The notes: a model not told the origin generated them from the sequence alone. 63,854 nucleotides of DNA, filler included, from Dugesia japonica (GCA_001938525.1; 6 parts of 6 records of this genome joined end to end with filler, not necessarily neighbours in it); one strand, 5' to 3'; shown: positions 5,162-33,950, numbered from the whole stretch's first letter. Made by a program: numbers and translations.

Positions 5162-5200
5162 GAGTTCCTTTTTTAAGTATATAAATTATTAATTTAACCA

Positions 5201-5985: not shown

Positions 5986-6202
5986 AGTCAATGAATGATT
6001 TTTTCATTTTTACTACTTGTTGGTTGTTGTAAAAAAATAAAAATTGTGTTAAGAAATTTTATCTTCCCTTTCTTTTAACTGAGAAGGTCCACTTAATTGA
6101 TTCCGTAATTCTGTTAGTTGATCTTTTTATATTAATTGTTTCAAATTAGTCGAAGTTTCGCTTGTTAATTAACCACAAATTTCTACAATGTATATTTTGC
6201 AG

Positions 6203-6561
6203 TGCATTCCTCACTGAACAGAACCACGGCTCCGATCAAAAAGATGAGGGATGCCAGCGAGGACCAGGAAATGACNTGGGACCTCTATCGCCTCACGAAG
6301 CGTCGCTGGGAGGCAAAGGTGGCNACCTCAAATAGTAAAGTACTTCGGTATAAGAAAAAATGCATCGCCTTTAAAAAGGAAGCCAAAGCCTCACACACTC
6401 GAGAACGAGTGTGAAAGGGGCAATTTGAGTTCTTCGCAGAAATTATCCGGTCCCACCATGACCGAGAGAATAGACTGGTCAGCGACATATTGCATCTCAA
6501 GGAGAAAATGCCTCTCAAACCCTTGATGATAGATAAAAGCACCCAAACTCCACAACCGTAG
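6203..6561 (+). pseudogene. Cassette ORF M3, coiled-coil-like protein ending in DKSTQT (one TGA at a Trp position)
   Basis: Homologous over its full length to 31965-32323 (HSSLNR...EMTWDLYRL...RYKKKC...PLMIDKxTQT). Begins at acceptor ttttgcag|TG. Confidence 0.75.
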
Positions 6562-6724
6562 ATACCCGGTATTATATGACTATGAAAATAAACATTTCTT
6601 TATGTTATTGTGACTTTGTTTTCATTAGTCTATTCCTTTTAAGTTAAAATAAAATTGTTGTCATCAAATATTAGGACTAATATAGTTCATTGATGTTTTA
6701 TCTTTAATATTTTACTCGTTTCAG

Positions 6725-7086
6725 TGCCATGTATCCAGTTGCCCCGTAGTCTAAAACGATGCCACCGACTCATCCAGAAACTGCTACTCGAGAGACACTT
6801 TAAACGCTAATCTGAGCGTGCTTTGCTCTATCATTTAACGCAACGAAATAGACTGATAAAGCGGTTGGACGTGATTGTAAAGAAACAAAAGGACTTAGCT
6901 GAACACACAAAACAGCTCCTACAGCACAAGGTCGAATTTTTGAAGCGTTACATTGCCGACCTGTCACGCCAACTGGGCAATGCTGCATATCTCAACTGGG
7001 ACGATAATGGCGACTCAGTGTTGTTCGACTTTATACCAGAAGAGCTGACCCAGTGGTTAGACCTGGGTGCTCTCGATGATTTGTGA
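6725..7086 (+). pseudogene. Cassette ORF M4, basic region + leucine-rich coiled coil + acidic/aromatic tail (one stop)
   Basis: Three homologous copies (here, 10986-11368 -, 32444-32839 +) share KQxDLA...K(V/I)(E/D)F...I(A/S)DLSxQ(L/I)GN and QWLDx. Begins at tttcag|TG. Confidence 0.75.
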
Positions 7087-7142
7087 ATTATAAAATAATA
7101 TACAGTATTGATAGTAGTTCTTGTTCATTTTATTATTTTTTT

Positions 7143-7329
7143 CGTGAAAGTAAGGAACCCGAATTAAAGGTGTACAAGTGAGCACCTCCCGTAAAGGGTG
7201 AGGGTCAACCACTCTGCGCTGAATATCTAACCTAGGGGCGTTAGATTAAATTCTTGAGAGAGTACCCCTGAGAACCGTTTTTATCCGGCCAGCATCGTTT
7301 TCACCATGAACTCAGGTGGGACACCAACA
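7143..7329 (+). ncRNA. Putative structured RNA, copy A (unrecognised family)
   Basis: One of four homologous copies. Stems GGTGTA/TGCGCT, TCTAAC/GTTAGA and CCTGAG/CTCAGG covary with the other copies. Invariant TAAATTCTTGA. Confidence 0.6.
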
Positions 7330-7681
7330 GAATAATTATAGTAATTATTTGATTATAAAATGCCTGAATTTAAAAGGACTTTAGTTGATCAGGTAAATGA
7401 TGGTTTGAAAAACGAAAATAATTCAAACATGAAATGTAAAAAGCTAACTTAAAGAACAAGAAACAAAGAAAGAAGAATTTAATAGAGAATAAGATACAGA
7501 AGAAGCATACGAAGAGGAAGCATATAACATAGGAACAGGTAAAGAAACAATTGAGTGAGTTCAAAAAACTATCAAAAAGCTTTGGATAGAAAATTTCAAC
7601 TGTTAATGGAAAATGGATCAATGTGACTGTTTGTATTTAAATAAACATTTTGAAATTTAAACAAAGTCTTCGTTTTTTAAT

Positions 7682-7969
7682 ATATTGCTAAAGGTTCCAA
7701 AAGAATCGACAAGGAAATTGTTACAGTTATTTTCAACATTTGTCATAGATGATTTGCTAGATATTATTGTAAATATTATTCGTGGTAATTTAATTATCAG
7801 TAAAAAGAAATAAACTAGAACTAAGCGTCATAAAAGGTCACTGCTTTCAATTGTANATACAAAGAATAAGAAATTGATGAGAAAAATAATATATAAACAA
7901 AAGGGAGGATTCCTTTCTGTTCTATTGCCAATCGCATTAACAGCTTTAGGACTAATAAATTTCACATAA
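7682..7969 (+). pseudogene. Polinton/adintovirus small basic protein with adenovirus pX-like C-terminus
   Basis: ...NIIRGNLIISKKK*...KRHKRSL...YKQKGGFLSVLLPIALTALG resembles the QxGG|FLxxLL protein found upstream of Polinton integrases (xGG|x protease-site-like). Confidence 0.65.
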
Positions 7970-8079
7970 ACAATGGGTAACTTACAATCATTATCAACAA
8001 TTTATTTCAAATTTATATCAAATTGTTGTAATGGACAAAATCAAACCAATATGAACAGACTCAAAAAATCCAGTAGGGT

Positions 8080-9066
8080 TCAACGGAGTGGAAAAACTAT
8101 CGAAAGCAAAAGACAATTTAAAGCGAGACAAGAAAGCGGTTATCAAACCAGTTAGCGTACAGTCTGAACAAGCCATTGTTTAAAAGATTCCCAACAAGAC
8201 CGTATAAAACCTTTGGTATTGATGATTTATGGCAAATGGATTTGATGGAAATGATANCTTATTCGAGAATTAATAAAGGATACAAGTATATTTTGTCATG
8301 CGTTGATGTATTTAGTAGATTTGCAAGAGTTGTACTAATAAAATCAAATTCTGCTAATGATATGGAAGCTGCAATGAAATCAATTTTCAAAGACAGGCAT
8401 CCTGATAATTTGCAAACGGATTTGGAAAAAGAATTTTATAATTAAAAAGTCAAAAATATTATTAATCATCTGAAGATTAATCATTTTTCTGTATTTCTAC
8501 AATAGAAAGCAGCATATGTTGAAAGATTTAATCGAACATTGAGAGATGCATTGAAAATGTATTTTGCATGCACTGGTAATAAAACTTGGATACACGTTTT
8601 ATTGAAAGTAATCGATATTTATAATCATTCAAGTCACAGAGAATAAAATGGAGCAAGACCTGTTGATGTATCATCCTATAATTCAATGAAATTATGGCTT
8701 TTGAGACAACAACCAAAAGCAATCAAGAAACCAAAATATAAAATTGGTGATCATGTTAGAATCTCAAAGATATCAGCTTCACCATTCATCAAGAATTTCG
8801 ATAGCAATTGAAATGATGAAGTATTTTATAAATCAAATATCAATACCAAACAGAATCCATTTATGTATGTGATTAAAGATCATTAAGAAAATATCATTGT
8901 TGGAAAATTCTATGAACAAGAATTACAAGTTATTCCACAACCAACAGTATTTAAAGTAGAAAATATTATCAGATCAAGGGGAATGGGAAAGTATAAACAA
9001 TTATATTTAAAGTAGCATGGATATGAAAAACCAAGTTGGATATCAGCATCTCAAGTAGTAATTTAA
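8080..9066 (+). pseudogene. Polinton/Maverick retroviral-type (rve) integrase with C-terminal chromodomain, degraded
   Basis: IDDLWQMDLMEM, GYKYILSCVDVFSRFA, LQTDLEKEFYN, KAAYVERFNRTL, KYKIGDHVRISK, GKFYEQELQ, LK*HGYEKPSWI; several stops and frameshifts. Confidence 0.9.
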
Positions 9067-9085
9067 ACTAAGAAGAAAAATAAAA

Positions 9086-10097
9086 ATGAGCAAAACGAAT
9101 AATTTCTATCCACCATTACCGAGTAATAGTTTTCCACGTATTCATCCTGATAATAACGCAAGTAGATTCTGTGTTGCACTTGAAAATCCCATTTACTTGA
9201 ATGAACAATGGGAAGTAGCCTTGATGGACTTTACCTTTATATATTCTGCCTTTCAATTATATAACAAACGATACATCCAATATGTAACAGGTAATATCAT
9301 GAGAGTAATGTAGAAATAATAATCAATAACAAAGAAAAATCATTGATGGTTCATGATGTTGGTTTTGTGGTGATTGATGAAAGATCATTGTCAATCNNNN
9401 NNNNNNNNNNNNNNNATGTTGTAATATTTGACAATTAAAAAGATGCTAAATAATTTAGATTTAATACTTTAATGAATAATATAGAATCGGATACTACCAT
9501 ACAATATCGAAACTTTAAAAACGATGATTCAATTGATATTGTGAAAATGAAATAAGTATTTTCAATAGAAACTAATAAATTCATATCTTTAAAAAATGAA
9601 TATTACATATTNNNNNNNNNNNNNNNNNNNNNNNNNNNNNNNNNNNNNNNNNNNNNNNNNNNNNNNNNNNNNNNNNNNNNNNNNNNNNNNNNNNNNNNNN
9701 NNNNNNNNNNNNNNNNNNNNNNNNNNNNNNNNNNNNNNNNNNNNNNNNNNNNNNNNNNNNNNNNNNNNNNNNNNNNNNNNNNNNNNNTTAATTCATTGGT
9801 TTTAAAAATCCAAAATTAATCACTAATCCACATAAAATGTTCATCTATAGTAAAATTGTTGAACCTATAGTTGTTGGTGGTGTTAATGTTCCTTTGTTGA
9901 AATCTGTATGGTTAGAGAATTGTGAAGATGATCAAGTAGCTCAGATTATAATCAAGAATCCAATGTATTTACCAGTTGCCACTTCATGTATAAACAATAT
10001 AAAAATAAATATTCAAGGAGATAGTGGAGAATTAATAAACTTTGCTAAAGACTCAAAAACTCATTTAACTCTACATTTTCGAAAAGTAAATGTCTAA
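9086..10097 (+). pseudogene. Polinton minor capsid (penton-like) protein, degraded and gapped
   Basis: N-terminal FYPPLPSNS...NNASRF...IYLNEQWEVAL and C-terminal FIYSKIVEPIVVGGVNVPLLK...NPMYLPV...GELINF...LTLHFR are the conserved ends of the Polinton minor capsid protein. Confidence 0.75.
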
Positions 10098-10386
10098 TCC
10101 CAATATTATTAAACTTTATAGTATCAGCCAAGCTGGTGGAGAATTGCCGTACTTTGTAGGAAAACAGTTTGTATATAGATGNTTGAAAANAACTGGTGGA
10201 TTTGCTTTGCCTATTCTTAGACGTGTTGTAGCTATTGGTATGAAAACAGCACATGATGTTACAAAAAATAAAACAAATATTTTACAGTCACTCAAAACAA
10301 ATGCTATGACTGAATTCAAAGAATTTATGGCTTCTCCAAAAGTAACGAAAATAATGCCAAAGGACAACACCACAAAAGAATGTTGA
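10090..10386 (+). CDS. Polinton small core-like protein (QxGGxLPxFxG family), probably degraded
   Basis: SQAGGELPYFVGKQF...FALPILRRV directly after the minor capsid gene, the usual position in Polintons. Confidence 0.6.
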   Translation: MSNPNIIKLYSISQAGGELPYFVGKQFVYRXLKXTGGFALPILRRVVAIGMKTAHDVTKNKTNILQSLKTNAMTEFKEFMASPKVTKIMPKDNTTKEC

Positions 10387-10431
10387 CATTTTTTTATATT
10401 ATTTAGCATATATTATACATCTTTGACACAC

Positions 10432-10590
10432 CTTTTACCATATTAACGGAACCTTTAAGTATCATTGACCATATTACTATGGGACCTTTAAACATCACAG
10501 ACCATATTACGATGGAACCTTTAAACATAATTGACCATATTACTGAAACCTTTAATCACAATAGACCATATAATATTGGAACTTTTTTTT
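10432..10590. repeat. Tandem repeat, ~30-33 bp unit, 5 copies
   Basis: gaccatattacgatggaacctttaaacatcatt-like unit. Followed by a 14-bp ctccatttttaatt x3 at ~10678-10722. Confidence 0.85.
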
Positions 10591-10741
10591 GATTTACCTA
10601 AATTTAAAATAAATTGACATTTAAAAATATAATTTGAATTAATCATATAAAAACAATTAACACATAAAAGAAATAAACTCACCATTTTTTAATTCTCCAT
10701 TTTTCATTCTCCATTTTTAATTTTAAATACAACTAAGTAAA

Positions 10742-10926
10742 TGTTGTGGTTCTACCTGAGTTAGATGGTGAGAAACACGGCTGAGGGAAAACAGCCCTCA
10801 GGGAAACTTTTTCAAGAATTTAACCCACCGTCCCTAAGGTAGGTTTTCAGTTCATGGTGGTTGACCTCTCTCTTAATGGGAGGTTCACACTCATAAACCT
10901 TTGTACTCGGGTTCATTATTTCCCCT
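10742..10926 (-). ncRNA. Putative structured RNA, copy B
   Basis: Reverse complement reads GGGGAAATAATGAACCCGAGTACAAAGGTTTATG...CCTACC/GGTGGG...TAAATTCTTGA...CCTGAG GGCTG/CAGCC CTCAGG...CAACA. Lies downstream of the minus-strand M4. Confidence 0.6.
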
Positions 10927-10985
10927 TATATTAGTAGCAAAAAAATACGATATTAATTATATACATTTTATTTCATAAAAATTAT

Positions 10986-11368
10986 TTATATCAAATCCAG
11001 CGCTCCTGGATCTAACCACTGGGTTGGATCGGTCAACTAAAAATTGAAGGCGGNAATGCCGTCATTGTCGTCCCATTGAGTCCAGGTTGTGTTGCCTATT
11101 TGGCGGGAGAGATCGGCGATGTATTGTTTAAGAAATTCTATCTTTCGCTGTAAAAGTTATTTCGTCTTTGCTTCTAAAGTGTTGGTTTGAGTCGCCAAGT
11201 CGCTCTGCTTCTTTACGATTAGATCTAATTGTTTTATTAACTTATCTCTCTAGGCCACTTGTTTGAGGATGACTCGGCCCGCCTTCCTTTTAAGATGTCT
11301 CTTTATCAAGAGTCGTTTCATAATCCGATGACACCATCGTAGGCTATTAGGGAAGGTTATACGTGGCA
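10986..11368 (-). pseudogene. Cassette ORF M4, second copy (three in-frame stops)
   Basis: tctttag|TG PRITFPNSLRWCHRIMKRLLIKRHLKRK...KIEFLKQYIADLSRQIGN...QWLDPGALDLI*. Confidence 0.75.
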
Positions 11369-11400
11369 CTAAAGAAAAGAATTATTAATGATATTCGAAG

Positions 11401-11500
11401 NNNNNNNNNNNNNNNNNNNNNNNNNNNNNNNNNNNNNNNNNNNNTTAATTAATTAANNNNNNNNNNNNNNNNNNNNNNNNNNNNNNNNNNNNNNNNNNNN
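11401..11500. other. Artificial scaffold linker (44N-TTAATTAATTAA-44N)
   Basis: The same 100-bp construct, with TAA in all six frames, recurs at 20711-20810, 29664-29763, 39472-39571 and 55429-55528. Confidence 0.95.
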
Positions 11501-11699
11501 TCATTTATTTTATTTGACAGAAACTTAATGTCAATTTAACATGGTGATATCAATGTGTCATAGAAATGAAATATCGTTATAATAATTAGAATACCTTGAA
11601 AAGGAAAGAAAATTTATTGCTTTCTTAAATATATCTTCCAACTTTAATTGTTCTAAAATGAAATAGTCCAATCAATACAGATTTGAAAAGACAACAACA

Positions 11700-11893
11700 G
11701 CCTGATAATCAAGACATTGGTTCACTTTTTGCATTGCTATACAAATTAACTTCTAAAGTTGAAACGGGTTGCGTTTTAAGACTCAGAGGAACAATAATAC
11801 TTGTGAAGATTACAAGTTTATTTAAATCTACTGGTGATTATAGAACCTTGATCTTGTATCTTGAACCATGTATCTTTAGAGAAATAACAACCA
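11700..11893 (+). mobile_element. Possible non-LTR (LINE) reverse transcriptase remnant
   Basis: LVKITSLFKSTGDYRTLILYLEPCIFREI loosely resembles the AKIxPIFK..NYRPISLL..KIFE motif of LINE RTs. Confidence 0.3.
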
Positions 11894-12262
11894 NNNNNNN
11901 NNNNNNNNNNNNNNNNNNNNNNNNNNNNNNNNNNNNNNNNNNNNNNNNNNNNNNNNNNNNNNNNNNNNNNNNNNNNNNNNNNNNNNNNNNNNGAAATCTC
12001 TTATACTAACTAACAATTTTGTTTTGTGATTTACTAATCTCATTTTGCGAGATTTTGAATTTTAACCTGGCGACTTCTTCCGAATATCGAAATTCCATGC
12101 ACTCAAAAGTCAAATTATTGCGAACGTTGAGCAAACAGAAGAACTTAAATTTAGAAGAGATTATTTATCAAAGAAACGGGTTTGCTATATTACTCATTGA
12201 TTAATATTAATAATGTTGTGGAATATAAGTTTTAAATCGTGATCGATAAGATTACTCTATAG

Positions 12263-12757
12263 CAGGAGTCTCGAACTCAAATGATCTCTCGGGACACATT
12301 AGACCATATTCGTTAGTCAGCGGGCCGCACTAATACTGTAACTCTAGGCCCTATAATCCATATTTGCAGCTTTTCGTTCAACAACAAATTACTGTTAATT
12401 ATTTAACAGTTGAACTTTTTGAATCAACTTTTCTTAAAGCATTTTGTTTGTATTTTTTATAAAAGTATTTCAACATTTTTCATCTGTCAAAAATCAGTAA
12501 TCTAAATTTGACATATTTTAGAAATTATTCATGCTTAACTACCGTAATTACCTAATGGTGGCGGTATATTCAAAATAAATGTACACATTTTGTTGATTAA
12601 TAGCAAAAAAGAGTATAATGAAAAAGATGTTAAGCGAATTCTACCTATTTTATATTTATTCTGCATCGGTTTGTTATTTGATTATATATTATTGTGTGCC
12701 GATATATTAACCGGGTCACCAATATGTTCGTTGAGGGCCACGAGTTTGACACTCCTG
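12263..12757. mobile_element. Non-autonomous hAT element (MITE)
   Basis: TIRs caggagtctcgaactc / gagtttgacactcctg; 8-bp TSD ctctatag / ctccatag. Confidence 0.85.
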
Positions 12758-14809
12758 CTCCATAGTATTGAAGTAATGGCTTACTTTCGGAAGCAATTAA
12801 GGCAGTTTAGATCTTGAAATAGAAGGGATAACTTTGTATTCTCTCCTAGATTAGCTAAGTAAAGTTCAATACGTTTTTAAAGGTCATTTGTTTCATATAA
12901 TATTTTTATTATTATAACTGATTAGTATGAGGATGAATTAGTTAAATTACAAAGAAAATAATGATTCAGTACGTTGAGTGTATTGCCTTAGTCGATTACT
13001 GACCGAAAGCATGACGATATCGAAATCGAAAGAAGCGTACAAAATATTGATAGTGTATGAGAAAGACAGGTGAAGAAACACAAAAGACAGAGACATACCA
13101 AGTTGATAAGGAAGAAAATCAATCGTTTTATAGTAATTTTAGAAGTGGCAAGCGAGAAAAGAAGCGTATGGAAATCTCGTTAGAAAAGCGGTTGATGCCC
13201 AACAAATTCGTTCTCAAGAATTACAGCGGTGATGACTAAAGGGAACGTGTAGTTATTGTACACACTCCAGCTTTTTCGGAACCAGTGAAAACGTTCGGTG
13301 AGTTTGACGTTGGATACGGAGCTCACTGAATAATATAAAATGAGTGCACAGCATTTTAGCTTATGTTTTAAAATCAATATATTTTAATTTTAAACTGTGT
13401 CTATTTTATGATCTTGATCATTTATTACAGTTAAAATAGGACATCTTCTTATTTAATACCATCCATTAATTAATGTTTAATTTTATTTATTATAGAACGC
13501 AAAAATCTAAAAAATGTGAATGATTTGGACTCGCTGAAATATCTCAAGACAAATATTTCAGTCGATACCCAGAAGAATTCAGAATTGCATGGCTTTGAAA
13601 GGAGAAAAGACAAAATATTAAATTTTGTACTATTTATACTATGTAACATTGACTTTATAACTGAATAACAATTTTTATAATCAAGTTCATTCTTTTACAG
13701 TTACTTTCAATTTAAAGTGCATTTTTATATTCATTAAATAATCATTCAGGGATTACCAATGCATTTGAATACGACAGTAATTTCATTTGCGTTTATTATT
13801 AAATGATTGTATATCACAGGACAATATGATTTTGATAAAATAAATGAAGAATTTATCAACAATTTAGAAACCAAAAAAAAATCAATTTCAACACGAACTC
13901 CATAAAAACTTACCATGTAACATGGAATACTATTTCCGAGAACTAAAAGTATAAATAAAATAATAAAATCTTAAATTTGCAAAAAAATTTATTAAATCTT
14001 AAAGCAAAACAGAAGACTTGATTTAAAATTTACTCACTATTTTCTGATAGTAAACAATCACATGATACTGATACAACAGTTTGTTGATGATTATTTATAT
14101 ATTGATGAATATCCGTATTAGGAACAATCGATATATTTTCAACAGCATACAATATTTTCAGATTGTCATAATTAGATGAGTACCTAAAATAATTTAAGAT
14201 AAAGGGAAAATTATATTGAATTAACATTTGAATTAATACGGTTATTTCTTTTGAAGCGCCTTTTTTCATATTCTATTTATTTTTCCACGTGTAAAAGTCA
14301 AATTTATTGGTTACAGTTACATTAATTTGAATCTTTCAATTAATTTTTAGAGGAAGATTTTAATATTGAAATGAAATGTGACTTCTTCTGTTTCAGAAAT
14401 AAGAGATTACATATAAAGTCGGTCATAAAATACAAATCTTCGTCGTTTAGAAATAGTTCGCCACAGCTAACAAACATTATAAAAATAGAAATAATCATAC
14501 TATGCATTCTAAGGATGAAAGGTGTGAAACAACGCAATGCAATTATCATGTAATGTGCTTCAATAAAATTCAATTCTACTTGTTTCTCAAAAGACTAAAT
14601 GAATAATCTTAAATATGGGAAGATTTAACTTTTGAGGTTATTTATCAATTATAAAATGTCTATTTAATTTTAAATGTTTTAGAAAAGGAAAAGAAACACT
14701 ATTTTTCACTTTAAACGTTAAAATTTGATAAAATTTACAAGTTATACATTCAGTGTTTAAAGAAACCTGTCGTATAAAGCACCCAGTCAAAATAGCACCA
14801 TCAAAAAGT

Positions 14810-15038
14810 TTATAATAATTATTATTATTGTTATTAATNNNNNNNNNNNNNNNNNNNNNNNNNNNNNNNNNNNNNNNNNNNNNNNNNNNNNNNNNNNNNN
14901 NNNNNNNNNNNNNNNNNNNNNNNNNNNNNNNNNNNNNNNNNNNNNNNNNNNNNNNNNNNNNNNNNNNNNNNNNNNNNNNNNNNNNAATCCCAAGAGAAAA
15001 AAGAACAATACAAAATAGCTTAAAAAATAATAATAATG

Positions 15039-15071
<33 letters not shown>

Positions 15072-15121
15072 NNNNNNNNNNNNNNNNNNNNNNNNNNNNN
15101 NNNNNNNNNNNNNNNNNNNNN

Positions 15122-15155
<34 letters not shown>

Positions 15156-15316
15156 TTAATACATAATAATATAAAATAATATATAATATAATAAAATTAT
15201 TAATAATATAATAATAATATGATTAATAATATAATAAAATAAAATATAATAAAATTAAATATAATAATAAAAAACATAATATAATAAAATAATATATTAA
15301 TAATAATAATAATTAT
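14810..15316. repeat. (AAT)n microsatellite / low-complexity tract
   Basis: Direct reading; partly gapped. Confidence 0.9.
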
Positions 15317-15975
15317 AAAATGAATGTGACTTCTTCTCTTTCAGAAATAAGAGAAGTCACCATCGTATAATGAGATATCAATAAAAAACATAGTATCATA
15401 AATCAAATAGTTATTGAAATAAATAAAACACTTCTAATATTCAAAATGATTACGCAGTAATTCTCAGAGATCAATTTTACATTGTACAAATTAAGATGAA
15501 TGAGAACTGATTGAAATGATCGTATTGTGATATGATGTAAATATTTGTACAAAAGACGTCTGTAGAAAACATACACGTATACACATGAGTTGAAAAGGTT
15601 TGGTTCATTTTGTTTAACTCGGTCTACCCAAGAATTTTTCCAACCTCGAAACCAAAAACTCATCTAAATCATGTCTAAAAATGGTTCATATTCACTGGTT
15701 TATTTTAGATTATTTTAAAGGGATCAACAGAAACTCTATCGTTAAATATTGCATGATTAGTCAATATATTATCATTGAATTTCGCTAACGAGTTCTGGAT
15801 TTCTTTGCTACATTGTCAGTTCCATAGATGGACCATATTTATTAATAAGACAAATGTATATTCTAGCAAAATCATTGAATTAATGGTTTAATAATTTACT
15901 TCACCACATTTTATTAATTTTTTAAAATAAATCGTTTGTTTTATTAATTTAGCATATTTCTTTGTTAATGAATTA

Positions 15976-16121
15976 TTTCATTAAATTAAAAGCTTCTATC
16001 AAAATGTTGTTTTGTTTCTTTTTTGTTAGATATTCGAATCTTCGACTATTGTTTTCCTCAGGAATATCGTAAATAATAAAAAGAAACAAAGCAAAATTTT
16101 GATTGAACCTTTTGATGAAAT
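15976..16121. mobile_element. Short MITE, copy 1 (copy 2 at 44657-44834)
   Basis: Inverted ends cattaaattaaaagcttctatcaaaatgttgttttgtttc / gaaacaaagcaaaattttgattgaacc; internal sequence shared with the 44.7-kb copy. Confidence 0.7.
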
Positions 16122-17239
16122 CTCAAATGCAATCAATGGTTAAGTCCTACAAATTATTTGGTTTCCATTTTTCTATTATAAGAATAATGGCTTTTAATTT
16201 TTATCAATTTATTTTATATTTATGTTTGAATTAAACTCGAACTCAACAGACATACATTAACACACACGTAAAATAAATTGATTTATAAAAATTGTACCAT
16301 TTTCCTGAGATTGTAATGATAGTATATGGTTGAAGGCAATCAATTTGGTTTTGAGATGCAACAACAAGAATCTTTTCATTTTCCCCATTTTCAATGCTTT
16401 TCGACCACAGAAATAAAAAGTTAATTGTTTTTGTAATTTCAATTATCATTAATTGCAATTTCTCATATTCTTCTTTATTATCTGCATTTTCTAAATAAGA
16501 AAGCTATCAAAAAAANNNNNNTTTTGAAATTTCTATTATAAAGATAGTTTAATGGAAAATGTTTTAATGATAAAGATTGAAATCATTAAAATATTACAAA
16601 GTTTATTTTCAACTTTAGAGAAATTACTTGTTGAATCAAAAAAATAAAGCAATAAAAGCAACAAAGGAAAATTTAATACCATTGCTAGGCGGAACAGAAA
16701 CGCTCACCGTAGAGCTTAAACTTATCCATAACCAATTTATATAAAACAAAAGACATGTTTTTATTTTGTTCAGTGAATCAGAATAAATATTTCATACAGA
16801 GCCAAACAATTTGAAAATCAACTTCAATTTCCAAAATACATTTAAAGATATATTTACAAAATAACTAAAAGTTTAAAATCTTAATTTAATTCATTTATTT
16901 TTTAAAATATGTTAATTTCCATAAATGAAGTTTAGCTTTCAAAAAATCTAAACTCTGTACTCAACAGTTTATTAAATATATAAATTTACATAAATTGATA
17001 TGAATATTACTACAGAGTTATCACATGGATTGGTAATAACCTGGCAAGCGAGTTCGCAGAAAGAAATTTTCTGCACACGTTAAGACGGGGGAAATAATGG
17101 TGGAAACACTATTAAAAGTAGCAAATTCAGTAATGTAATTTTCAAGATAGAAAAGCCCCAAATCAATCTAGCTATAGTTTCTAAGCAAGAACTGATTCTG
17201 AAATTTGTTAATGCTAGTGAACTGTTGAAACAGTAAGGA

Positions 17240-17400
17240 GGAAACAAGGATCCTGGTGTCAGACAAAGGAAAATTTATTCTGAGTTGGATTCTATTCTAC
17301 TTGTATTAGCGATGGAACTAATGGGGTCTGTGTGGCCACCTGCATGTATGGTCGAACGAGGACTGAAGTTCTTGTACCATGGAAGGACTGATTTGTGGCG
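17240..17400 (+). mobile_element. Possible LTR-retrotransposon integrase remnant
   Basis: ILVSDKGK and PPACMVER in nearby frames resemble the SDNG and NGxxER integrase motifs. Confidence 0.3.
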
Positions 17401-19089
17401 AATTCGTATGGAAATCTTTTAGTTCGATACCTCTTAAAAGAGGAGAAAACCTGACTACATGGTTAGGTATTAATATATTTAACAATTTGGAGGTTTTACA
17501 TATATTGATGCAAATTTTTAAATATATAAATATATAATCATGTAATAAGAAACACTAAACTACATAGTTCTTTAAGGAAAACAATGAAAATCGATGGTGT
17601 TCTTTTCTCTAAAAATTATGGAATGGAAACATTTTAATAAATCAAGTATTTGGAGTTAATCTTTTTTTGCCAACGAAATCTGAGCTAAAAAGTCTTTGAC
17701 GGGTGTGAAATATGACTAAGAATATTATAATATTTTCATATTGACCTTTATATAAGTAAATTGACATATGTATGTGATAATAGGTGAATTGACTGTTTGA
17801 ATGTGTGTATGATTTTAGTGCTCAGACATTATTACATAACTGATTCTTCAAAAGTTATATATCTATATATTTATATATTTGTTACAGTGTTATTTTGGAT
17901 TTAAATATATATTTTATGCTTAATTCTATTTCCAAGTCTAACAACGGGATAAAGTCTTTTCAAAATAGGGAAGCCATTATCTTAGAATTCTAAAAATCTT
18001 TGAAGCGTTTTTGACGTAGCACAAACATATAAAAACACGACGGTACCTTTTCTGGTTGGGAACATATTTCATTATCGCTGTAATCCTGTTCTTCTTGAAT
18101 CTACTCGGCTAATGATAAAATTGTCTATTCAGAAGGTGAATTAGCAATGATCAAGTTAGAATCCACAATAATATACTGGCTAAAATCAATCAGTCAAATA
18201 AGATGAAACAAGTTCAAATAAACTGTCATTTACAGGATGCTCATCAATATACTATACGAATTAGTTTTCGAAAATGCTATTAAACCCAACATGTCGAAAG
18301 TAATTTATTATCGTGTAATCAGCAATCTTTTCCAATGAATCTTTAAGAATATGACCTGCTTGATGCAGTCGAAAAAAGATTATCATCGAAAACTTGGAAT
18401 GCTAACAATAACTAAAAAATATCATTTTGATCTAAACTTTCTAATTTATTTAAACTTTAAAAATGCGATCAATGGTTAAATCCAAAAATTATTCTCGAAA
18501 TAATCGTAATTGCAAAATAAAAATGTGTCAAAATTTTAAGATATAGAAGTGTAAAAATTTAATTTTCGTGAATATTATAATTCTTTATCACAGTAAACTT
18601 ATTTCTTCTGATAATTTTTACAGACTTCAAGTTAAAAGAACCAGTAAAACTAGGCAGCTTTAACTCTTTTGGGTATAGTATGTTAAAAACTTATCCATTT
18701 CAAAACCTGAATATTAACAATATGATATAATTTACTTTGGTGAAAAATTAATAAACATATATAAAAAATATAAAGCAAATTTCTCATAAATTCTATTTTT
18801 TTACAAAAAAATTATGTTAATATCAAAAAGATTTCACTAATACACTTACTGTGCTTAATAAAATACTTGCTGAAATAATCGGAAAGAACCACTTCACTCT
18901 TTTTACGAGATAATATTTTATTCAGTGTATTCACGTGGCCATTCCTATACAAAAATTTGTGTAAAAAATGAAATAAATTACAAAAATATAAATGACTCAT
19001 TTAAATCGTCAGCTACTCACATCAAACAAAAGGTAAGGAAAAATAAATACATTTTTTATATAATGAAATTAATAAAGTTCTTAGTGTGT

Positions 19090-19640
19090 ACAGGATTTCC
19101 CATCAGTTTTCACACATTGCTGCAAGCGGCGTTAAAAGACCAACATTTGTTAGCAATTGTAAGATTATTTTAGAACATTTATTTGAGATAAATTCCATTA
19201 GTTGCTCTTTAACGCAAGGGTTTCGCTTTTAAACTTCATTTTTCAGTCAACCCCAATGAAAATATCGGACGGAGAAAGGTCTTTGGATCGTGATAGAAAT
19301 TTTTTATTAAGAATGTGTACGAGTTCCCTCTTGTTGAAATCATATCTTCTGTAAAAGTTTCTTTCGTTTTAGTAACGGAACTAAAACTTCTTCTATCATA
19401 CGCAAATAACCATCCCCTTTGATGGTATCTTTTGCATTCTCTGGAGGAACAACGCTCGCAGATCTACCTTATTGAGTTAAGTTCTAGTTTCCATACATTT
19501 TTGTAGATGCTCCTGATGGTTTTGTTACTTGGAATATTTTCAAATTTCTTTCTTGTTTATTTCCGACAAATCGATGTCGAGCCATCAGCAATACAATTTC
19601 CGTTCTTTCTTTAATTTTCAGCATTTTGAAATTTTGGTTT
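19090..19640 (-). mobile_element. Tc1/mariner transposase remnant
   Basis: LSRSKDLSPSDIFIG (cf. WPPRSPDLxPxDFFLWG) and N-terminal MLKIKERTEIVLL on the minus strand; internally deleted. Confidence 0.6.
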
Positions 19641-19943
19641 TTCGAATATTAAAACAAGTTTAAAACAATATTAAAACAAACCCGCATTATTATTTCATAG
19701 ATTTTCCCTCAGACTGCTGGCTTCTAAGACAATATATATATAAGCCGATGTCATTTTTAGATAATAAATTTTAGAACACTGATTTGAACTTTTTAATAAC
19801 ATGGCCTAAATTGTGCTGTTGAAATATTTGTTTTCTTTATATAAGAGAATAGTCCAAATAATATGCCTATGTTAATTTTTTCATGGAAATATCTGTTAGT
19901 TATAAATGGTTCGCAGCTTTAAATGACATTTCTCACTTTAGAC

Positions 19944-20353
19944 CAGTAGTGGGCAAATGGTGTGTCGCGGCAAGTGTTCTGGTGTCGCGAAAAATAATTA
20001 AAAATTACAAAAAACTCTTCACAGCGGCAAGTCCATACAAGTAGAGGGATAGTAGCNNNNNNNNNNNNNNNNNNNNNNNNNNNNNNNNNNNNNNNNNNNN
20101 NNNNNNNNNNNNNNNNNNNNNNNNNNNNNNNNNNNNNNNNNNNNNNNNNNNNNNNNNNNNNNNNNNNNNNNNNNNNNNNNNNNNNNNNNNNNNNNNNNNN
20201 NNNNNNNNNNNCTTATGTTTTTCCTGGTTTTTCAAGAAGAATTTAAATAAATGTTTTTTGGTACCGTTTTAAATTGCGAAAAAAGAAATTGTAGTGTCGC
20301 GAAAAAAAAATTACTTAGGTGTGTCGCGGCTTGAAAATGTTTGCCCACCACTG
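19944..20353. mobile_element. Non-autonomous hAT element (MITE)
   Basis: TIRs cagtagtgggcaaa / tttgcccaccactg, perfect 8-bp TSD ctttagac, subterminal gtgtcgcg repeats. Confidence 0.9.
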
Positions 20354-20810
20354 CTTTAGACTAATAAATTAAGCATTTAAAAGCATAAATAATCATACTT
20401 TTTCCATTTTTTAAAATCATTTTTCGGAGTAAATGGTTGTATTTCTGAATCAAAGAGAAATGATTTTAAATCCAAGATTTCCGAATTTTGTTTTCCAAAT
20501 TCATTATAAATTGGGGAATTCATTTTATCAATTTTTAATTCGTCACAAGTCTGAATTTGAATATCAAGAAACATTAATTAAAATGGAGTGTTTACATTAT
20601 CATCACTTAGGGAATGAAAATGTTCTATTTCAACTGAATTTTCGCATTCTTTGGCATCATTATATTGAAATTTTTCTTTAATAGTTATTTCCTTAAAAAT
20701 ATTTTAATTANNNNNNNNNNNNNNNNNNNNNNNNNNNNNNNNNNNNNNNNNNNNTTAATTAATTAANNNNNNNNNNNNNNNNNNNNNNNNNNNNNNNNNN
20801 NNNNNNNNNN

Positions 20811-21560
20811 CAGGCCAAAAAATGTAGCTTTCATGGCATTTTCGATTATGTTGGTGTAATCCGAGTCCAAGAATTTCGGACCCATTGTACAACATCGTCA
20901 ATTTTTGGCTTAATTAAGTTTTTTCTTGTATTTCGCTCTTGTTTTTATTCAATAAAAGGGTTTATCTCTTCTTGAATGTAATCTTTAAATAGTTTGTTAA
21001 TAACAATGTCCAAACTTTGCAAATATGGAGTGGTGCCCGAAGGCATTATTAATTGAAGAGAGGAATTCTTTCATAGATCTCAGTCTGTGAGTACTTCCAG
21101 AATTCAATATTTGAAGCCCTCTTTGTCCATATCGAAATACCGGTGGCCTTATCCTTTCTAGACATTTTTTATGACATCTTGTGTACTCCAGGATTTTGCT
21201 GATTCGATTAAATAAATACCGTTTTTATAAGTAATTTAATTTTTTGAACTTTTTATAATAATCATGGGTAGTATTTTTTCAGTATCGAGTCAAAAGACCA
21301 AAATACATGTCAGTCTAGAGCTTTCATAACCTGTAAACTAAACTGCTTGCACTATGTGTGACTGTTGTTTGGCTATTTCTCCCAAAGCTTTTTCATTCAT
21401 TGCTATAGAAAAAATGTGTTTATACTGTTTGATAATGATATGATAAATTAATACTATTTAGGCAAGTGCGCGTCAAATAATTTCATGGTCTGGATGTTTG
21501 AAAAGAGTTGCAGACCTCCGTAGGAACATTCTGTAAATTTAAATATAAATTTTTTAAAGT
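20811..21560 (-). mobile_element. pogo/Tigger (DDE_1) transposase remnant
   Basis: IMPSGTTPYLQSLDIVINKLFKDYIQ and TGYESSRLTCILVF*LDTEKILPMII match pogo motifs. Confidence 0.8.
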
Positions 21561-22837
21561 CAATCAAAGTGCCTTGTATTTACTTGTATTTATTCAAAAA
21601 AAAAATACACGAGTGCTTTTAATAAAGAGAGTACTTCAGNNNNNNNNNNNNNNNNNNNNNNNNNNNNNNNNNNNNNNNNNNNNNNNNNNNNNNNNNNNNN
21701 NNNNNNCATTCAAATAAATACCCGTTAAAATAAATATATAATGAAAGACAAATTTATTTTTATTATTTAATTTATTTGACCATTTAATTAGTTACTCGAG
21801 CCAAATTCGTAAGAGGCTAAGGTTATACACTTAGAAAAAATACATTTAGTAACAAATACACGTTTTAAAACTTGGAGCTCTAAATACAGCGCGTTACATT
21901 TTCATATTTATATTATGATTCAAATTTATCGTATAATTTAATTAAATGTTTTTATTTTTACAAAATTAATTTTATTGAATTATCTTGAATATTTTTACAA
22001 TTAGTTTACAATTGTAAACTAACGTTTGTAAAAACATTAAATGTGACAATCAACAAAAATTTTGACGATAAACTTCGAAAATTTCAAGAAATCAGAACTT
22101 TACAATTTATCATTTTACTCTATGAGATAAAATCATTAAATAAATCCTATCAAATTAAATTTTATTCTGTTAATAAAGTTAACTAAAAATGAATACATTT
22201 AAAGTCTAGACATACTGTCAGATTTAATTGTTCATTAGATAATTTTTGATTACCACTTGCAAATTTTAATTAATTATTCACTTAATATATATAAANNNNN
22301 NNNNNNNNNNNNNNNNNNNNNNNNNNNNNNNNNNNNNNNNNNNNNNNNNNNNNNNNNNNNNNNNNNNNNNNNNNNNNNNCATTAATTTATTATGAAATAT
22401 AAAATTTGTTTCAAAATACTGAACAACATTTTAAAACTTTATAAACCAATTTAATAATAATTATTATTTAAAAATTAAAAAATAATGTAAATATAAAATT
22501 TCCTATAAATCCATGATGCACACAAATTCTGTAATTTCAAGCACCTACATATAATTATCCCAATAAATTTACATGCACATTAATTTTAGTCATCTTTATC
22601 TAGATTTATAAATGATCAACCAATAGAAAGTGAATCACATAATCGATTTTCTTGTTACAGGCCTTATCATGCAGAAATTAATAATTTTTGCACACATTTT
22701 TATAAATATATAAACACGGAAAATTGCTTTAAAATTATTATTAAGAATTAACAAATAGATTTATTTAAATTATAATCAGTTTATTTGAGATTCTTAGTTT
22801 GGAATTATTTTGGAATATTTTCTGAACAAGTCACAAA

Positions 22838-29391
<6,554 letters not shown>

Positions 29392-29595
29392 AACCGACAA
29401 TACTTTTAAATACAATTTATTTCTCTAGTATATATTATTGAACATTATTTTTGTGAAATGATTTTATAGCACTGGATTTGCTTTATTCTTTGTTATTGCG
29501 ATGTTATTTTATTAAATAACATGTTTTGTATTTTCTAAGTTAATTTGATTTAAAAAATTTATATGTTTATAATAATTTCATTTATTAAGTAACAA

Positions 29596-29596
<1 letters not shown>

Positions 29597-29663
<67 letters not shown>
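29597..29663. repeat. (TTA)n microsatellite at scaffold end
   Basis: Direct reading. Confidence 0.9.
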
Positions 29664-31132
29664 NNNNNNNNNNNNNNNNNNNNNNNNNNNNNNNNNNNNN
29701 NNNNNNNTTAATTAATTAANNNNNNNNNNNNNNNNNNNNNNNNNNNNNNNNNNNNNNNNNNNNTTTAATTAAAATTAAGCGTTACCTTTGAATAATAAAA
29801 TATTTATAAAGTACGTTTTGATTTTTGAATTACATAGCAGAGTTCACATATATTAGTTATCTATATTTGTGTAAAATCTTCATATATAATAATTGTATTG
29901 ACACACACAAAGAAAACGAATCAAATCATATAAAATCATTATAACACATTANAATCGAACCATAAATAACTTGTTGAGTAGAAATACCCAACATATATAA
30001 TGGTAGCCATTCCTGTCTTGAAATACTAATAAAAGACAAAATTACTAAAAACCAAAATCATATATAGATAAGTTAAAGAACTATAAATATTAGCCTAAAA
30101 TCAATTAGTACAAATTAAGTATGCATTTGATTTATATTTATGACTAAGAAAGAAGAAGAAAAATAGGATTCGAATAATTTATTTAGATAAAAAATTGTTT
30201 ACCTTCGATAATGTGGAAAAGGCACAACGCCCAGGATTTCCATAAGTTAATCCCCAATAATAAGTGTAATATATTCCATGCTCAGTCAAATTCCCGTAAT
30301 TTAGCGATGTTCTCTTCATTTTCTTGGAATTCCTTGTGAATAGAGAACAAATATTTTGCTGCTGAATTAGCCTTGTATTGATGTGTTATGAATATTACCA
30401 GAATGGCATAGTGAGAAATTCCTAAGAAAACTGAAATAACCCACTAGTCGATTGCGTGCGTATGCAGTATGAGGAGAATGACATTATCGGCTTGATGTCG
30501 CTACATACGTTAATTTTTTTTGGTGTTTCCACACACAGCCTTGACCATTGTCGTAAAAAACTCTGTTACCAAGGGAACAACTGCTAGGTAACCCTCACAA
30601 CATACGGAAATTTAAAATGAATAATTGCATTAACATTTTAATTTTCTTTTATTTAGTTTATGATGATTGAAAACAATTTTAGTGGTCCTCGTTATTAGAG
30701 AGGCTCCATCCAATAAAATTCTTCTTTTTATATACGCACTTAATGAGCTATTTTTCATCATTGGCATGGAAAGCGCTAACGCTACATACCCTATTGATCC
30801 AGGGATGAACATTCATAAATAAGAAAGGGCGTGCCACTGCAAATGTTAATAAAATGTTTTTCGTGAATAATTTTATTGATAATATTATTGTGGAAGTAAT
30901 TTCACCACTGGTTATCATTATGTTAGTATATATGTTTAATATTATTCATATTGGAAGAACCACTATTATCGGTCCCGAGGAAATTAATATGTTCTTAATT
31001 AATAGAGTTTTGGGGATTACCACTTATACTCGGTTTTGGTCATACAAATAATAAGGTTCATCAAGTGCAAATATAATTGTTGATTCGAGTCTTGAGTTAT
31101 ACGTTACTATTAACCATTTCAATTTTTAGCTC

Positions 31133-31315
31133 ATGCCATCGGAATTATATTGTATTCTACGTTGGGTAAAAGAGCAACGCCCAGCTAGTCGATCCAAACA
31201 ATTAATAGCGCACCTACTGACCAAGGGGGAAATTGAGCATCCAGACGAAACGGATCTGAGATGCTTTGTAGAAATGTTTCCCTTTATGGCAGAAATCGAA
31301 CTAAACGCAGAATAA
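31133..31315 (+). CDS. Cassette ORF M1, second copy (60 aa)
   Basis: Same length as, and homologous to, 5201-5383; preceded by tttttag|ctcATG. Confidence 0.75.
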   Translation: MPSELYCILRWVKEQRPASRSKQLIAHLLTKGEIEHPDETDLRCFVEMFPFMAEIELNAE

Positions 31316-31432
31316 GTCATGCTGTTTGTAGCATTGTCATGAAAGTAAATTACATGCGCCATCTCGTTGACGTTTTTATTGTTTATGGAAAATTTGGTTT
31401 TATTCTAATCATTCTCATACTTTAATTAGGAA

Positions 31433-31780
31433 ATGGAATCTATTTGGGAACGCACGGTGGATCGACTTTCCGGCGGCACCACAATCCCTACAATCAAGAT
31501 GCCGGGATCCTGGTAGATAGATAAAATCTACCCCCCTCGAAGCAACTGTTGCTCGTATTCAGAGCTTTGGAGAGCAACTAAACTATCGCCAGGGGAATGG
31601 TCCTGAGCGTAACCACGCCACTCCATTCCGGTACCAACCTCCAGCTCCACCACCAGTATTTTAGGCCTTTATAGCTAAAATGCTCTGGGGTGTTAGGGAA
31701 CCCTCCGGCCTGGCGGATTAGNAAAATACAGTTCCCCCTGATACTAAAAATNCCGACTCTTGATGTTATCATAATCGTAA
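31433..31780 (+). pseudogene. Cassette ORF M2, second copy (frameshifted)
   Basis: NPYNQDAGILVDR*NL motif; occupies the same position between M1 and M3. Confidence 0.55.
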
Positions 31781-31964
31781 AATGTGTGTTTCTTTGAATA
31801 AATAAGTGTCTTAAGTAGTGTTAAAATACTCTCTAGCACTTTGGGAGGATTCCCTTTAATACTGTTATTCAGTGTTTTTATGCTTTAAATAAAGTTGAAC
31901 AGATATTAGTAAATTAGTCAGCAAGTCGATGAAGAGAAATGATTCTTATGATGTTTTCTTTTAG

Positions 31965-32323
31965 TGCATTCATCGTTAAATCGTCCCCCAGCTCCAACCA
32001 AGAAAATTCGAGACACGAGCGAGGACCGCGAAATGACGTGGGACCTCTACCGACTCGCCAAACGATGTCTGGAGGCGGACGTGGCCACTGCGAATAGTAA
32101 AGCGCTCCGTTATAAGAAAAAATGTGTTCTTTTCAAAAAGGAAGCGGAGGCCTCCCATTTACAGGAGCGCACTTGGAAAAAACAAGTGGAATCTTTTTCA
32201 GAGATTATNNNNNNNNNNNNNNNNNNNNNNNNNNNNNNNNNNNNNNNNATTTTGATTCTCCGGGAGAAAATCCCCCTCGAGCCGCTAATGATCGACAAAG
32301 GTACTCAGACGAGCCGCTCCTAG
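31965..32323 (+). CDS. Cassette ORF M3, second copy, ending in DKGTQTSRS
   Basis: Open apart from an N gap; begins at ttcttttag|TG; homologous to 6203-6561. Confidence 0.75.
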
Positions 32324-32443
32324 CTTGATATTGCATTATTGTTTGAATTAATAAATTATTTAATTGTATGAAATTCCTCTGTTACTTGTTTTTCCCGAGT
32401 CATCGACTAAGTATTCATTAATTTGATTGTATTTTTTCTTTAG

Positions 32444-32839
32444 TGNNNNNNNNNNNNNNNNNNNNNNNNNNNNNNNNNNNNNNNNNNNNNNNNNNNNNNN
32501 NNNNNNNNNNNNNNNNNNNNNNNNNNNNNNNNNNNNNNNNNNNNNNNNNNNNNNNNNNNNNNNNNNNNNNNNNNNNNNNNNNNNNNNGTAAGCAAAACGA
32601 CTTGGCAACCCAAACCAAAGCCCTAGAGGCAGAGAACAGGAAATTACTGTTACGAAAAATAGATTTTTTTATTTTTTTTTAATTTTATTTTTTTTAGATT
32701 TTTTCATATCTGACCTCTCCACACAGATTGGGAATCCGCCTGGATTCATTGGAACGATGACGACGATGTCGCCGCCTTCAATTTCACAATAGACGACCCA
32801 GATCAATGGCTAGACCCTAGCATATTAAATGATCTATAA
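32444..32839 (+). pseudogene. Cassette ORF M4, third copy (gapped, T-rich insertion)
   Basis: KQNDLATQTKALEAENRKLLLRKIDF...ISDLSTQIGN...QWLDPSILNDL*; begins at ttctttag|TG. Confidence 0.7.
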
Positions 32840-32896
32840 ATGTTATATTAATAAATGTTCCAAGAAGTATTTGGTATAAAATTTTGTGTAAGTTGA

Positions 32897-33085
32897 GGGA
32901 AAACTATCGAATCCGAATACAAAGGTTTATGGGTGTGCACCTCCCATTAGGAGAGAGGTCAACCGCCATAAACTGAATACCTACCCTAAGGGCGGTAGAT
33001 TAAATTCTTGAACGGGTTCCCCTGAGGGCTGCTTTTTTCCCCAGCCACATTTTTATTACCATCCGACTCAGGTGGAACCCCAACA
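32897..33085 (+). ncRNA. Putative structured RNA, copy C
   Basis: Stems GTTTATG/CATAAAC, ACCTC/GAGGT, CTACC/GGTAG, GGGTTCC-CCTGAG/CTCAGG-GGAACCC, GGCTG/CAGCC. Confidence 0.65.
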
Positions 33086-33099
33086 AATGTAAATTAAGC

Positions 33100-33290
33100 C
33101 AAAATCTGAAAAAAGGCAACAACTTTTGAGTGGTATGTCCAAAATCGTTGGGACAAGAAAAACGGTGAAAGACGAGGATACCTTCAGGAGAGTCAGAAAA
33201 AAGGTTGGAAGATCAAGCCAATAACGTAACAGGAAAACAAATTAAAACCAGAAACAAGAAATCACAAGACATCTAATTTTAGACGNCAAT
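33100..33290 (+). pseudogene. Family M5 remnant between RNA copies C and D
   Basis: WKIKPIT*QENKLK matches WEIGPITTQEIKIK of the ORF at 2624. Confidence 0.45.
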
Positions 33291-33418
33291 AAAACACAAA
33301 GGAAGTTTTGAAAAATTTAGAAATCGAACTATGAATAGGTCACATTTTAGCACCGGATCGAATTATTCCCACTCGACCCGGACATTAATTCATAATTACT
33401 GTTTATTTGGTTAATAAT

Positions 33419-33605
33419 GGGAAAAGTAATGAACCCGAAATAAAGGTATACGAGTGAGCACTTCAAGTATACGTTGGAAGTCAACAGCTTTGTACCGATA
33501 GCCTAATCAGAGACATTAGGTAAATTCTTGAATGGGTCCCCTGAGGGCTGTCTTTTCCCCAGCCACGTTTTTTCTTCTTCTACAAACTCAGTTAGGACCC
33601 CAACA
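33419..33605 (+). ncRNA. Putative structured RNA, copy D (most divergent)
   Basis: Stems GGTATA/TGTACC, ACTTC/GAAGT, CCTAAT/ATTAGG, GGGTCC/GGACCC, GGCTG/CAGCC; 5' GGGAAAAG complementary to loop CTTTTCCC. Confidence 0.65.
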
Positions 33606-33855: not shown

Positions 33856-33950
33856 CGAAAGCCAAATATTAAAAAATTGTGAATGGGAAAGCCAAATATT
33901 AACAAATTGTGAATGGGAAAGCCAAAATATTAACAAATTGTGAATGGGAA
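33856..33950. repeat. Near-perfect 30-31 bp tandem repeat, 3 copies
   Basis: gaaagccaaatattaacaaattgtgaatgg x3. Confidence 0.9.

Follow-up and report, generated by a model that had tools for sequence, protein, structure and literature searches.

Several described viral and ribozyme systems bear comparison with the element reported here. The pistol ribozyme is ordered as a hairpin whose loop forms a pseudoknot with the segment that joins two stems at their left shoulders (PMC4604425), and a U-U lies beside its cleavage junction (PMC6795133). The herpesvirus saimiri HSURs are described as Sm-class viral RNAs (PMC4378190) and adintoviruses as adenovirus-like (PMC11071296), and silencing of Polintons by PIWI-interacting RNAs is reported in a planarian (PMC8532177). 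We analyzed a stretch of 63,854 nucleotides (nt) of Dugesia japonica DNA (GCA_001938525.1; six parts joined with filler), referred to below as the window, which carries four copies, A to D, of an element of ~187 nt associated with Polintons, which are widespread virus-like elements. This element has a conserved three-domain fold on the sense strand, in which the 5' purine tract is clamped on the loop of stem 3c, and it lies past a stop codon. The feature is real, conserved and unclassified, and its long-range pseudoknot makes it more striking; the evidence supports reading it as a conserved structured RNA borne by a mobile element. The pseudoknot, the fixed place past a stop codon and the high copy number are new beyond an earlier note on this DNA, which had reported the four copies.

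The copies were verified at the positions and strands given in that note, and a profile hidden Markov model (HMM) and a covariance model trained on them match these four places alone in the window, the next-best matches reaching 2.8 bits (HMM) and 10.5 bits (covariance model). The copies have a GC content of 43-48%, against 27% for the window, and are 69-80% alike in pairwise global alignments. Over the final 120 coding bases ahead of A, B and C the likeness drops to 55-62%, so that the element is better conserved than the neighbouring protein-coding DNA; the likeness is 48-51% in the spacers and 39-58% in the 60 bases downstream. Conservation ends at the 3' CAACA, beyond which the read data show variable AT-rich loose ends. 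Of the layout proposed earlier, the invariance of TAAATTCTTGA and CAACA stands, but the common GGGAAA start does not hold for A, which begins with CGTGAAAG; in addition, C has GAATCC and B has GAACCCGAG.

The consensus fold of the aligned copies has an energy of -32.6 kcal/mol, against a mean of -12.2 kcal/mol for column shuffles (z -6.8, equalled in 0 of 300). In the fuller model with all helices 93.8% of 195 cells are paired and 11 of 49 pairs show a change on both sides, a count matched by none of 500 shuffles, a test which relatedness alone can beat and in which the structure was derived from the same four sequences; controls with slid partners reach 1-2. The compensatory changes that the earlier note had pointed out were all recovered: three of the six pairs of stem 2 are altered on both sides with pairing kept, position 4 of stem 1 (pair 34/79) changes from G-C in A to U-A in B and C and to A-U in D, and the inner-stem changes ACCTC/GAGGT versus ACTTC/GAAGT and CTG/CAG versus CCG/CGG are present. 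Two A-C mismatches occur in the inner stem 3c of A, and a C-U mismatch at the base of CCTGAG/CTCAGG in D.

The basis of this covariation is the four full copies together with read-derived fragments, which come from four of 24 read runs mapped to 31753-36203 (the region that holds C, D and rps20, A and B lying outside it). A further stem 2 variant, CTAGC/GCTAG, found in 32 reads of run X21, keeps the pairing with a new pair type, and another, CCTAAA/TTTAGG, is the consensus of 45 contigs of run X15, at an agreement of 0.64 only. The 32 X21 reads cluster on 32998-33090 and represent another copy, mostly antisense to the structured strand. Run X15 is without a library record but behaves as DNA, with even coverage of introns and intergenic stretches. 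In most of the 12 rows shown of 66 in the read data the joining strand has a pyrimidine run, usually of 4-6 U. Across seven helices the sense strand has 15 G-U cells against 5 A-C cells (p 0.02, the cells not being independent), and we prefer this strand because of that excess and because it has the same sense as the coding strand of the neighbouring genes.

New in the fold is pseudoknot A, a helix between the first eight conserved bases and the loop of stem 3c, with 30 of 32 cells paired and four of the eight columns changed on both sides. It is the sole 8-bp window of the alignment with 30 paired cells and three two-sided columns, a combination which none of 300 column shuffles produced. Two further helices are hypothetical and were drawn from the sequence: a pseudoknot B, which would join the loop of stem 2 to the five bases before stem 3b (16 of 19 cells paired, drawable in all four copies), and a 4-bp helix that would join UUCU to the 3' purine run (16 of 16 cells, likewise in all four copies). 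At the two mismatched places of pseudoknot B, in C and D, the mismatching state is a minority one in run X15, which fits its pairing but also mere conservation. CAACA and most of the strand around GAACCCGA have no conserved 4-bp partner inside the alignment; the presence of several such invariant, partnerless strands is what might be expected of a catalytic core.

In genomic context, a same-strand open reading frame (ORF) precedes all four copies, and in three cases it is the same gene, while a plausible gene follows only A and C; this arrangement speaks for a tie to the upstream gene. The stop codon of the shared orphan gene lies 56-63 nt ahead of A, B and C alike; the gene is rich in predicted coiled coil, apparently contains introns and matched no family. 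Searches for relatives of its last exon confirmed 0 of 19 candidates in viral contigs and 0 of 88 proteins, with no atlas match, and the atlas leads for its middle exon were all under 0.9; a repetitive protein matching the middle exon at E 3e-5 was set aside as a chance match. The 333-nt interval between C and D holds a decayed ORF with weak similarity to an ORF at 2570 (tblastx E 6e-4). The stretches 2004-2398 and 2570-2890 hold 32- and 31-nt tandem repeats and, behind these, the ORF with this similarity, and the 714-nt gap that comes next could hide a further copy.

The link to a Polinton claimed in the earlier note is direct for A, because a retroviral-type (rve) integrase gene and a gene of a penton-type family adjoin this copy, and A alone, downstream on the same strand; for B, C and D it is indirect, because it runs through the shared orphan genes only. 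The predicted model of the penton family (modest confidence, predicted local distance difference test score 64) matches the minor capsids of MELD viruses, virophages and giant viruses, and of 264 candidates from scanning with the penton alignment none was confirmed. No protein-primed polymerase, major capsid, ATPase or terminal inverted repeats were recognised in the ORF list or the self-comparison of the window, in which the Polinton of A ends at ~10384 and has gaps. A Polinton core gene running from 10090 stops abruptly at about that point, where the opposite-strand fragment with B begins, possibly through a nested insertion or a rearrangement. Behind D, the stretch 33690-33950 is of high copy number (summed X15 depth ~35,000 at 33830), has some RNA reads on both strands and is possibly the terminal region of the element. 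The coordinates of these features are collected in the table.

Table. Coordinates of the structured RNA copies, of the parts of the fold (shown in copy D unless stated otherwise) and of the associated genes and repeats in the window
Feature	Coordinates	Strand	Remarks
RNA copy A	7143..7329	+	56 nt past the orphan-gene stop; 31 nt ahead of the ATG of a decayed small ORF and a run of Polinton core genes
RNA copy B	10742..10926	-	~60 nt past a homolog of the last exon of the orphan gene; on a fragment head-on to the Polinton of A
RNA copy C	32897..33085	+	~56 nt past the orphan-gene homolog
RNA copy D	33419..33605	+	Paralog of C, 333 nt behind it, 71% alike; after a decayed ORF
Pseudoknot A, 5' purine strand	D 33419..33426; A 7143-7150; C 32897-32904; B 10926-10919	+ (A, C, D); - (B)	Covariation
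Conserved single strand around GAACCCGA	33427..33438	+	Mostly without a 4-bp partner
Stem 1	33445..33496	+	Long irregular hairpin with internal loop and variable tip; 15 pairs, 3 changed on both sides
Stem 2 with purine-rich loop	33502..33520	+	3 of 6 pairs changed on both sides; loop is the 5' strand of proposed pseudoknot B
Invariant TAAATTCTTGA	33521..33531	+	Sm-site-like, or A-rich linker and first strand of a hypothetical 4-bp helix to the 3' end
Domain 3	33536..33597	+	Stem 3b (CTGAG/CTCAG), stem 3c, pyrimidine loop, U-rich joining strand, 2-nt junction (33592-33593), purine run
Pseudoknot A, 3' strand	33552-33559	+	Loop of stem 3c
Invariant CAACA	33601..33605	+	Unpaired; 3' limit of conservation
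Small 60-aa ORF	5201..5383	+	55% identical to the ORF at 31133-31315; gene block shared by A and C
Decayed orphan gene	5575..7086	+	Upstream of A; three exons inferred; tblastx homologs at ~31430-32840 (+) and 10990-11370 (-)
Decayed rve integrase, open part	8122..8442	+	Pfam PF00665, E 5e-9; shares 43% identity with the integrase on IMG/VR contig L091
Decayed penton/minor capsid gene	9087..10094	+	C-terminal piece has 9 relatives at 56-72% identity
33-nt tandem repeats	10437..10586		~160 nt past B; possibly subterminal
30-nt tandem repeats	33857..33951		~250 nt past D; possibly subterminal; high X15 depth just before

Based on the fold and its position we tentatively propose, granting the idea rather less than an even chance, that the element is a cis-acting Polinton RNA which forms or guards the 3' end of transcripts, probably by self-cleavage. 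Under this proposal a Polinton (Maverick/adintovirus) family would set the RNA just past some of its genes in order to make or guard their 3' ends. The loop of stem 2 would pair with the strand ahead of stem 3b, and UUCU with the 3' purine run, and the two weak helices together would yield the strand order of pistol, with a 2-nt junction between the right-hand shoulders. This junction reads GU in A, B and C and UU in D, and beside it a U lies opposite a U, both invariant. Cleavage at the junction would stop read-through into the next gene, the end of the element or host DNA, leaving a knotted 3' end devoid of poly(A), and the conserved U-run of the joining strand may lie along the A-rich helix as a third strand. 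Catalysis would require bases other than those of pistol, candidates being the conserved partnerless strands around GAACCCGA and CAACA. In its most specific form, which we regard as unlikely though worth serious consideration, the element would represent a new class of self-cleaving ribozyme of distantly pistol-like order, with a core of its own drawn from the 5' domain and tethered by the long-range pseudoknot, that ends or insulates Polinton transcripts in a thousand or more copies.

Several observations weigh against the fold or against this proposal. Single copies fold no better than their own shuffles (z +0.7 for A, -1.5 for B, -1.6 for C and -0.3 for D). Neither pseudoknot B nor the UUCU helix shows any two-sided change, 4-bp helices common to all four copies arise about nine times per shuffled alignment, a second possible partner exists for UUCU, and a plain extension of stem 3 using the same bases pairs 92.0% of cells as against 93.8%. 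The G33-C41 pair and the G40/G42 residues of pistol are without counterpart: the gap between the pseudoknot and stem 3b is 0-1 base, the triplet in the other register is GGG or GAA, and the GCG pattern occurs in none of the four copies. The AATAAA motifs ahead of B and C would make a second 3'-end signal redundant. RNA coverage of the 3' bin of C amounts to 0.5, 18 and 4.7 reads in three RNA runs, against 1,400-2,400 over rps20, and in the sole stranded run ~80% of these reads are antisense, many of them from one other locus. These runs gave no sign of cleavage, of a transcript end or of a discrete RNA: none of the joints, starts and ends listed falls at the element, with 13 joints, 5 ends and 817 loose ends lying beyond the listing. 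Finally, the consensus fold of the reverse strand is also significant and of lower energy (-37.8, z -6.1), and the choice of strand therefore rests on the excess of G-U cells and on the orientation of the genes nearby.

A significant fold on the reverse strand would be in keeping with a structure that acts in single-stranded DNA, or as the packaging or replication RNA of the element, as would the nearness of B and D to possibly subterminal repeats. We consider this very doubtful, as the excess of G-U over A-C cells favours the sense strand, A lies internally, and the single related Polinton contig that turned up, the near-complete adintovirus-like L091 of IMG/VR (1-15597), has no copy of the RNA. 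By eye this contig has polymerase-, capsid-, ATPase- and integrase-like ORFs.

The same flanking signals could place the element at a 5' rather than a 3' end. AATAAA stands 46-47 nt ahead of B and C, though not of A (the chance rate here is ~0.19 per 60 nt), and ATG codons are present downstream of A (+31) and of C (+50). If the upstream mRNA were cut at its poly(A) site, the knot could block 5'-3' exonucleases and allow the uncapped downstream cistron to be translated, combining the roles of an exonuclease-resistant RNA (xrRNA) and an internal ribosome entry site (IRES). The best-supported helix does use the very first conserved bases, and the XRN1-blocking folds of flaviviruses mark a 5' end and occur in pairs (PMC4378190). 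Downstream of B and D, however, there are tandem repeats and no credible ORF (11-19 codons), no in-frame non-AUG start was found past CAACA, no IRES or xrRNA model of Rfam matched, and none of the 5' ends listed lies at the element; on balance we find this arrangement improbable. An IRES of the dicistrovirus type with a non-AUG start was dropped, there being no open frame past CAACA.

Another explanation, which we judge unlikely but would not dismiss lightly, is that the element is an independent small RNA of the Polinton, transcribed by polymerase II, which Sm proteins bind at AAAUUCUUGA as they do the HSURs or which acts as a decoy against host RNA silencing like the VA RNAs. Sm sites have the pattern RAU3-6GR, single-stranded between stems. 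In all four copies the invariant strand between two stems would fit an Sm site if one C is allowed, whereas none of the four has the strict pattern. The sharp length and boundaries of the element speak for a discrete RNA, and the tandem paralogs C and D resemble paired viral small-RNA genes. On the other hand, box B is absent from all four copies, the runs of 4-6 T inside each of them would stop polymerase III, and no shared promoter or 3' box is evident by eye in the flanks. Abundant sense RNA was not seen in libraries that are oligo-dT or unspecified cDNA; two of the three RNA libraries are oligo-dT, so that RNA without poly(A) would be missed. The strain behind the three RNA runs departs from the window at about a dozen positions of rps20, as against none for X15. 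The rps20 gene itself (35375-35845, minus strand) is highly expressed and has two 41-nt introns (35564-35604 and 35767-35807).

The invariant AAAGGT near the 5' end, followed by stems and an Sm-like strand, has the layout of a spliced-leader (SL) RNA, and a virus-encoded RNA of this kind would trans-splice its first 26-27 bases (..AAAG before the invariant GU) onto Polinton mRNAs. We regard this as the remotest of the explanations, because the would-be leader is locked in the best-supported pseudoknot, the GU lies inside stem 1, and no donor joint or loose end is among those listed. RNA coverage is zero over the 5' part of C, and the depth at the donor is 0 in C and at most ~6 in D, which, together with the limit of the listing, makes this a weak test.

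The copy number of the element was gauged from X15, where the single-copy depth is ~10.5. In such units the orphan gene stands at ~180-390 (two sampled places), the ends of C at ~680-760 and its invariant core at 38,000, values which are sums over overlapping contigs and not copy numbers. Allowing for up to 31-fold overlap, the core corresponds to at least ~1,200 related copies, which suggests roughly 10^3-10^4 related copies in the genome. Since the summed depth of the core of C is ~100 times that of the adjoining gene, and the 3' loose ends agree poorly (0.47, 63 contigs), the RNA itself might be the mobile unit, SINE-like (short interspersed element) or retrozyme-like, with its placement in Polintons secondary. 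This seems very unlikely to us: all four copies of the window lie in the same gene block, three of them at the orthologous place; there is no poly(A) tail and no box B, and flank matches that might be target-site duplications are AT-rich stretches of 5-7 letters and no more; the depth at the ends of the element is near that of the gene end (390); and the spike at the core may reflect higher conservation together with overlapping contigs. The possibility that the copies are miniature inverted-repeat transposable elements, solo long terminal repeats (LTRs) or SINEs was ruled against in view of the lack of target-site duplications, terminal repeats, a tail or bracketing of gag-pol.

Searches for relatives of the RNA returned no known family. 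Rfam gave no match at the gathering score, and its sub-threshold hits were scattered and not the same from copy to copy; its pistol model was not listed at E up to 10, even on pieces of 109-115 nt, and the hepatitis delta virus-like, twister, twister-sister, hatchet and lariat-capping ribozymes had no Rfam match and also failed a comparison of strand order by eye. ARAGORN predicted no tRNA or transfer-messenger RNA gene in the window. The hammerhead core consists of CUGANGA followed by GAAA, and it is absent from both strands of all four copies. The earlier note had likewise been unable to match the element to tRNA or the hammerhead core, and none of the three outcomes that it had named as refuting was observed: the covariation held, no confident Rfam match emerged, and neither target-site duplications nor a pairing around gag-pol was found. 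Its view of a structured RNA of a mobile element is upheld by the covariation, by conservation above that of coding DNA and by the lack of an Rfam family, but the evidence for transcription is weak, the reads being thin and mostly antisense or unstranded. Scans by pattern gave 0 and 7 loci in viral contigs, 83 in metagenomes and 3 in prokaryotes; none of these 93 was recognised by the covariance model (best 11.6 bits, E 0.63), nor was any of the 90 viral and metagenomic loci by the HMM (best E 0.085), so that these scans held no RNA homolog beyond the host. A telomerase-like template reading of GAACCCGAA was dropped, as the window has no TTCGGG arrays and a three-letter redundancy arises easily by chance; a full-text search gave no literature match for it. 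An H/ACA RNA was also dropped, as the stems share no H-box position. The full-text literature search, in the portions of text it returned and with repeat libraries and subscription papers outside its scope, yielded no description of a Polinton non-coding RNA or ribozyme, while Polinton sequences in the supplements of papers may include the element with no mention of it.

The remainder of the window contains other mobile-element remains and host genes. The gag-pol remains at 40-43 kb and 52-54 kb are not enclosed by the copies; in these regions decayed pol-like frames of LTR retrotransposons were seen by eye at 40050-42950 (plus strand) and 52700-54040 (minus strand). A 193-nt inverted pair (42879-43071 with 43704-43896, 92% alike) carries mariner-like coding remains, and a further mariner-like piece lies at 62240-62542 (both by eye). 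A host type IV collagen gene with many short introns spans 22000-29400 on the plus strand (Pfam Collagen and C4 on a long exon), and 47264-47479 on the minus strand appears by eye to be an ankyrin-repeat-like exon of a host gene.

A multi-pseudoknot RNA placed past Polinton genes would show how such elements end, process or shield their transcripts under host silencing, and would directly test whether the lineage related to adenoviruses possessed functional small RNAs other than VA RNA; if cleavage proves true, it would constitute a new ribozyme fold from an animal genome. With so many copies, both a powerful covariation analysis and an inexpensive in vitro assay are within reach.

Among the known systems, pistol shares with the element a possible strand order, a 2-nt GU junction between the right shoulders, which holds only if the P2-like helix is real, a U opposite the cleavage-site U, and an intergenic location in virus-like elements. 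Unlike pistol, however, the element is about three times as long and has an extra 5' domain, a long-range pseudoknot, a eukaryotic host and no Rfam match, and its pistol-like helices are the least supported helices of the Polinton RNA. As the core residues of pistol are without counterpart and Rfam does not list the model, the element is not a pistol and is at most like one with another core. With HSUR/Sm-class and SL RNAs it has in common an Sm-like single strand between stems and an invariant AG-GU near the 5' end, whereas the C within its U-run, the long-range pseudoknot, and the absence of a visible snRNA promoter or 3' box and of trans-spliced reads among those seen set it apart. It differs from the triple helix of the expression and nuclear retention element (ENE) in that its A-rich tract precedes the U-rich strands on the 5' side and has a hairpin loop, not an internal loop, as its pairing partner, the triples being putative, and from both ENE and xrRNA in lacking an Rfam match; nevertheless, its U-rich strands could clamp an A-rich tract as in ENE, and it has a knot that could protect an end and tandem copies like flavivirus xrRNA (PMC4378190). 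In comparison with the adenovirus VA RNAs (PMC6599070), it is without box B (0/4), has internal runs of 4-6 T in all four copies, and has no terminal stem or long apical duplex, its 5' end pairing with an internal loop; the GGGU/ACCC tetrastem of VA RNA is possible in C and D and broken in A and B. It is nonetheless like VA RNA I and II in its similar size, its origin in a related virus lineage, its pseudoknot and the occurrence of two nearby paralogs.

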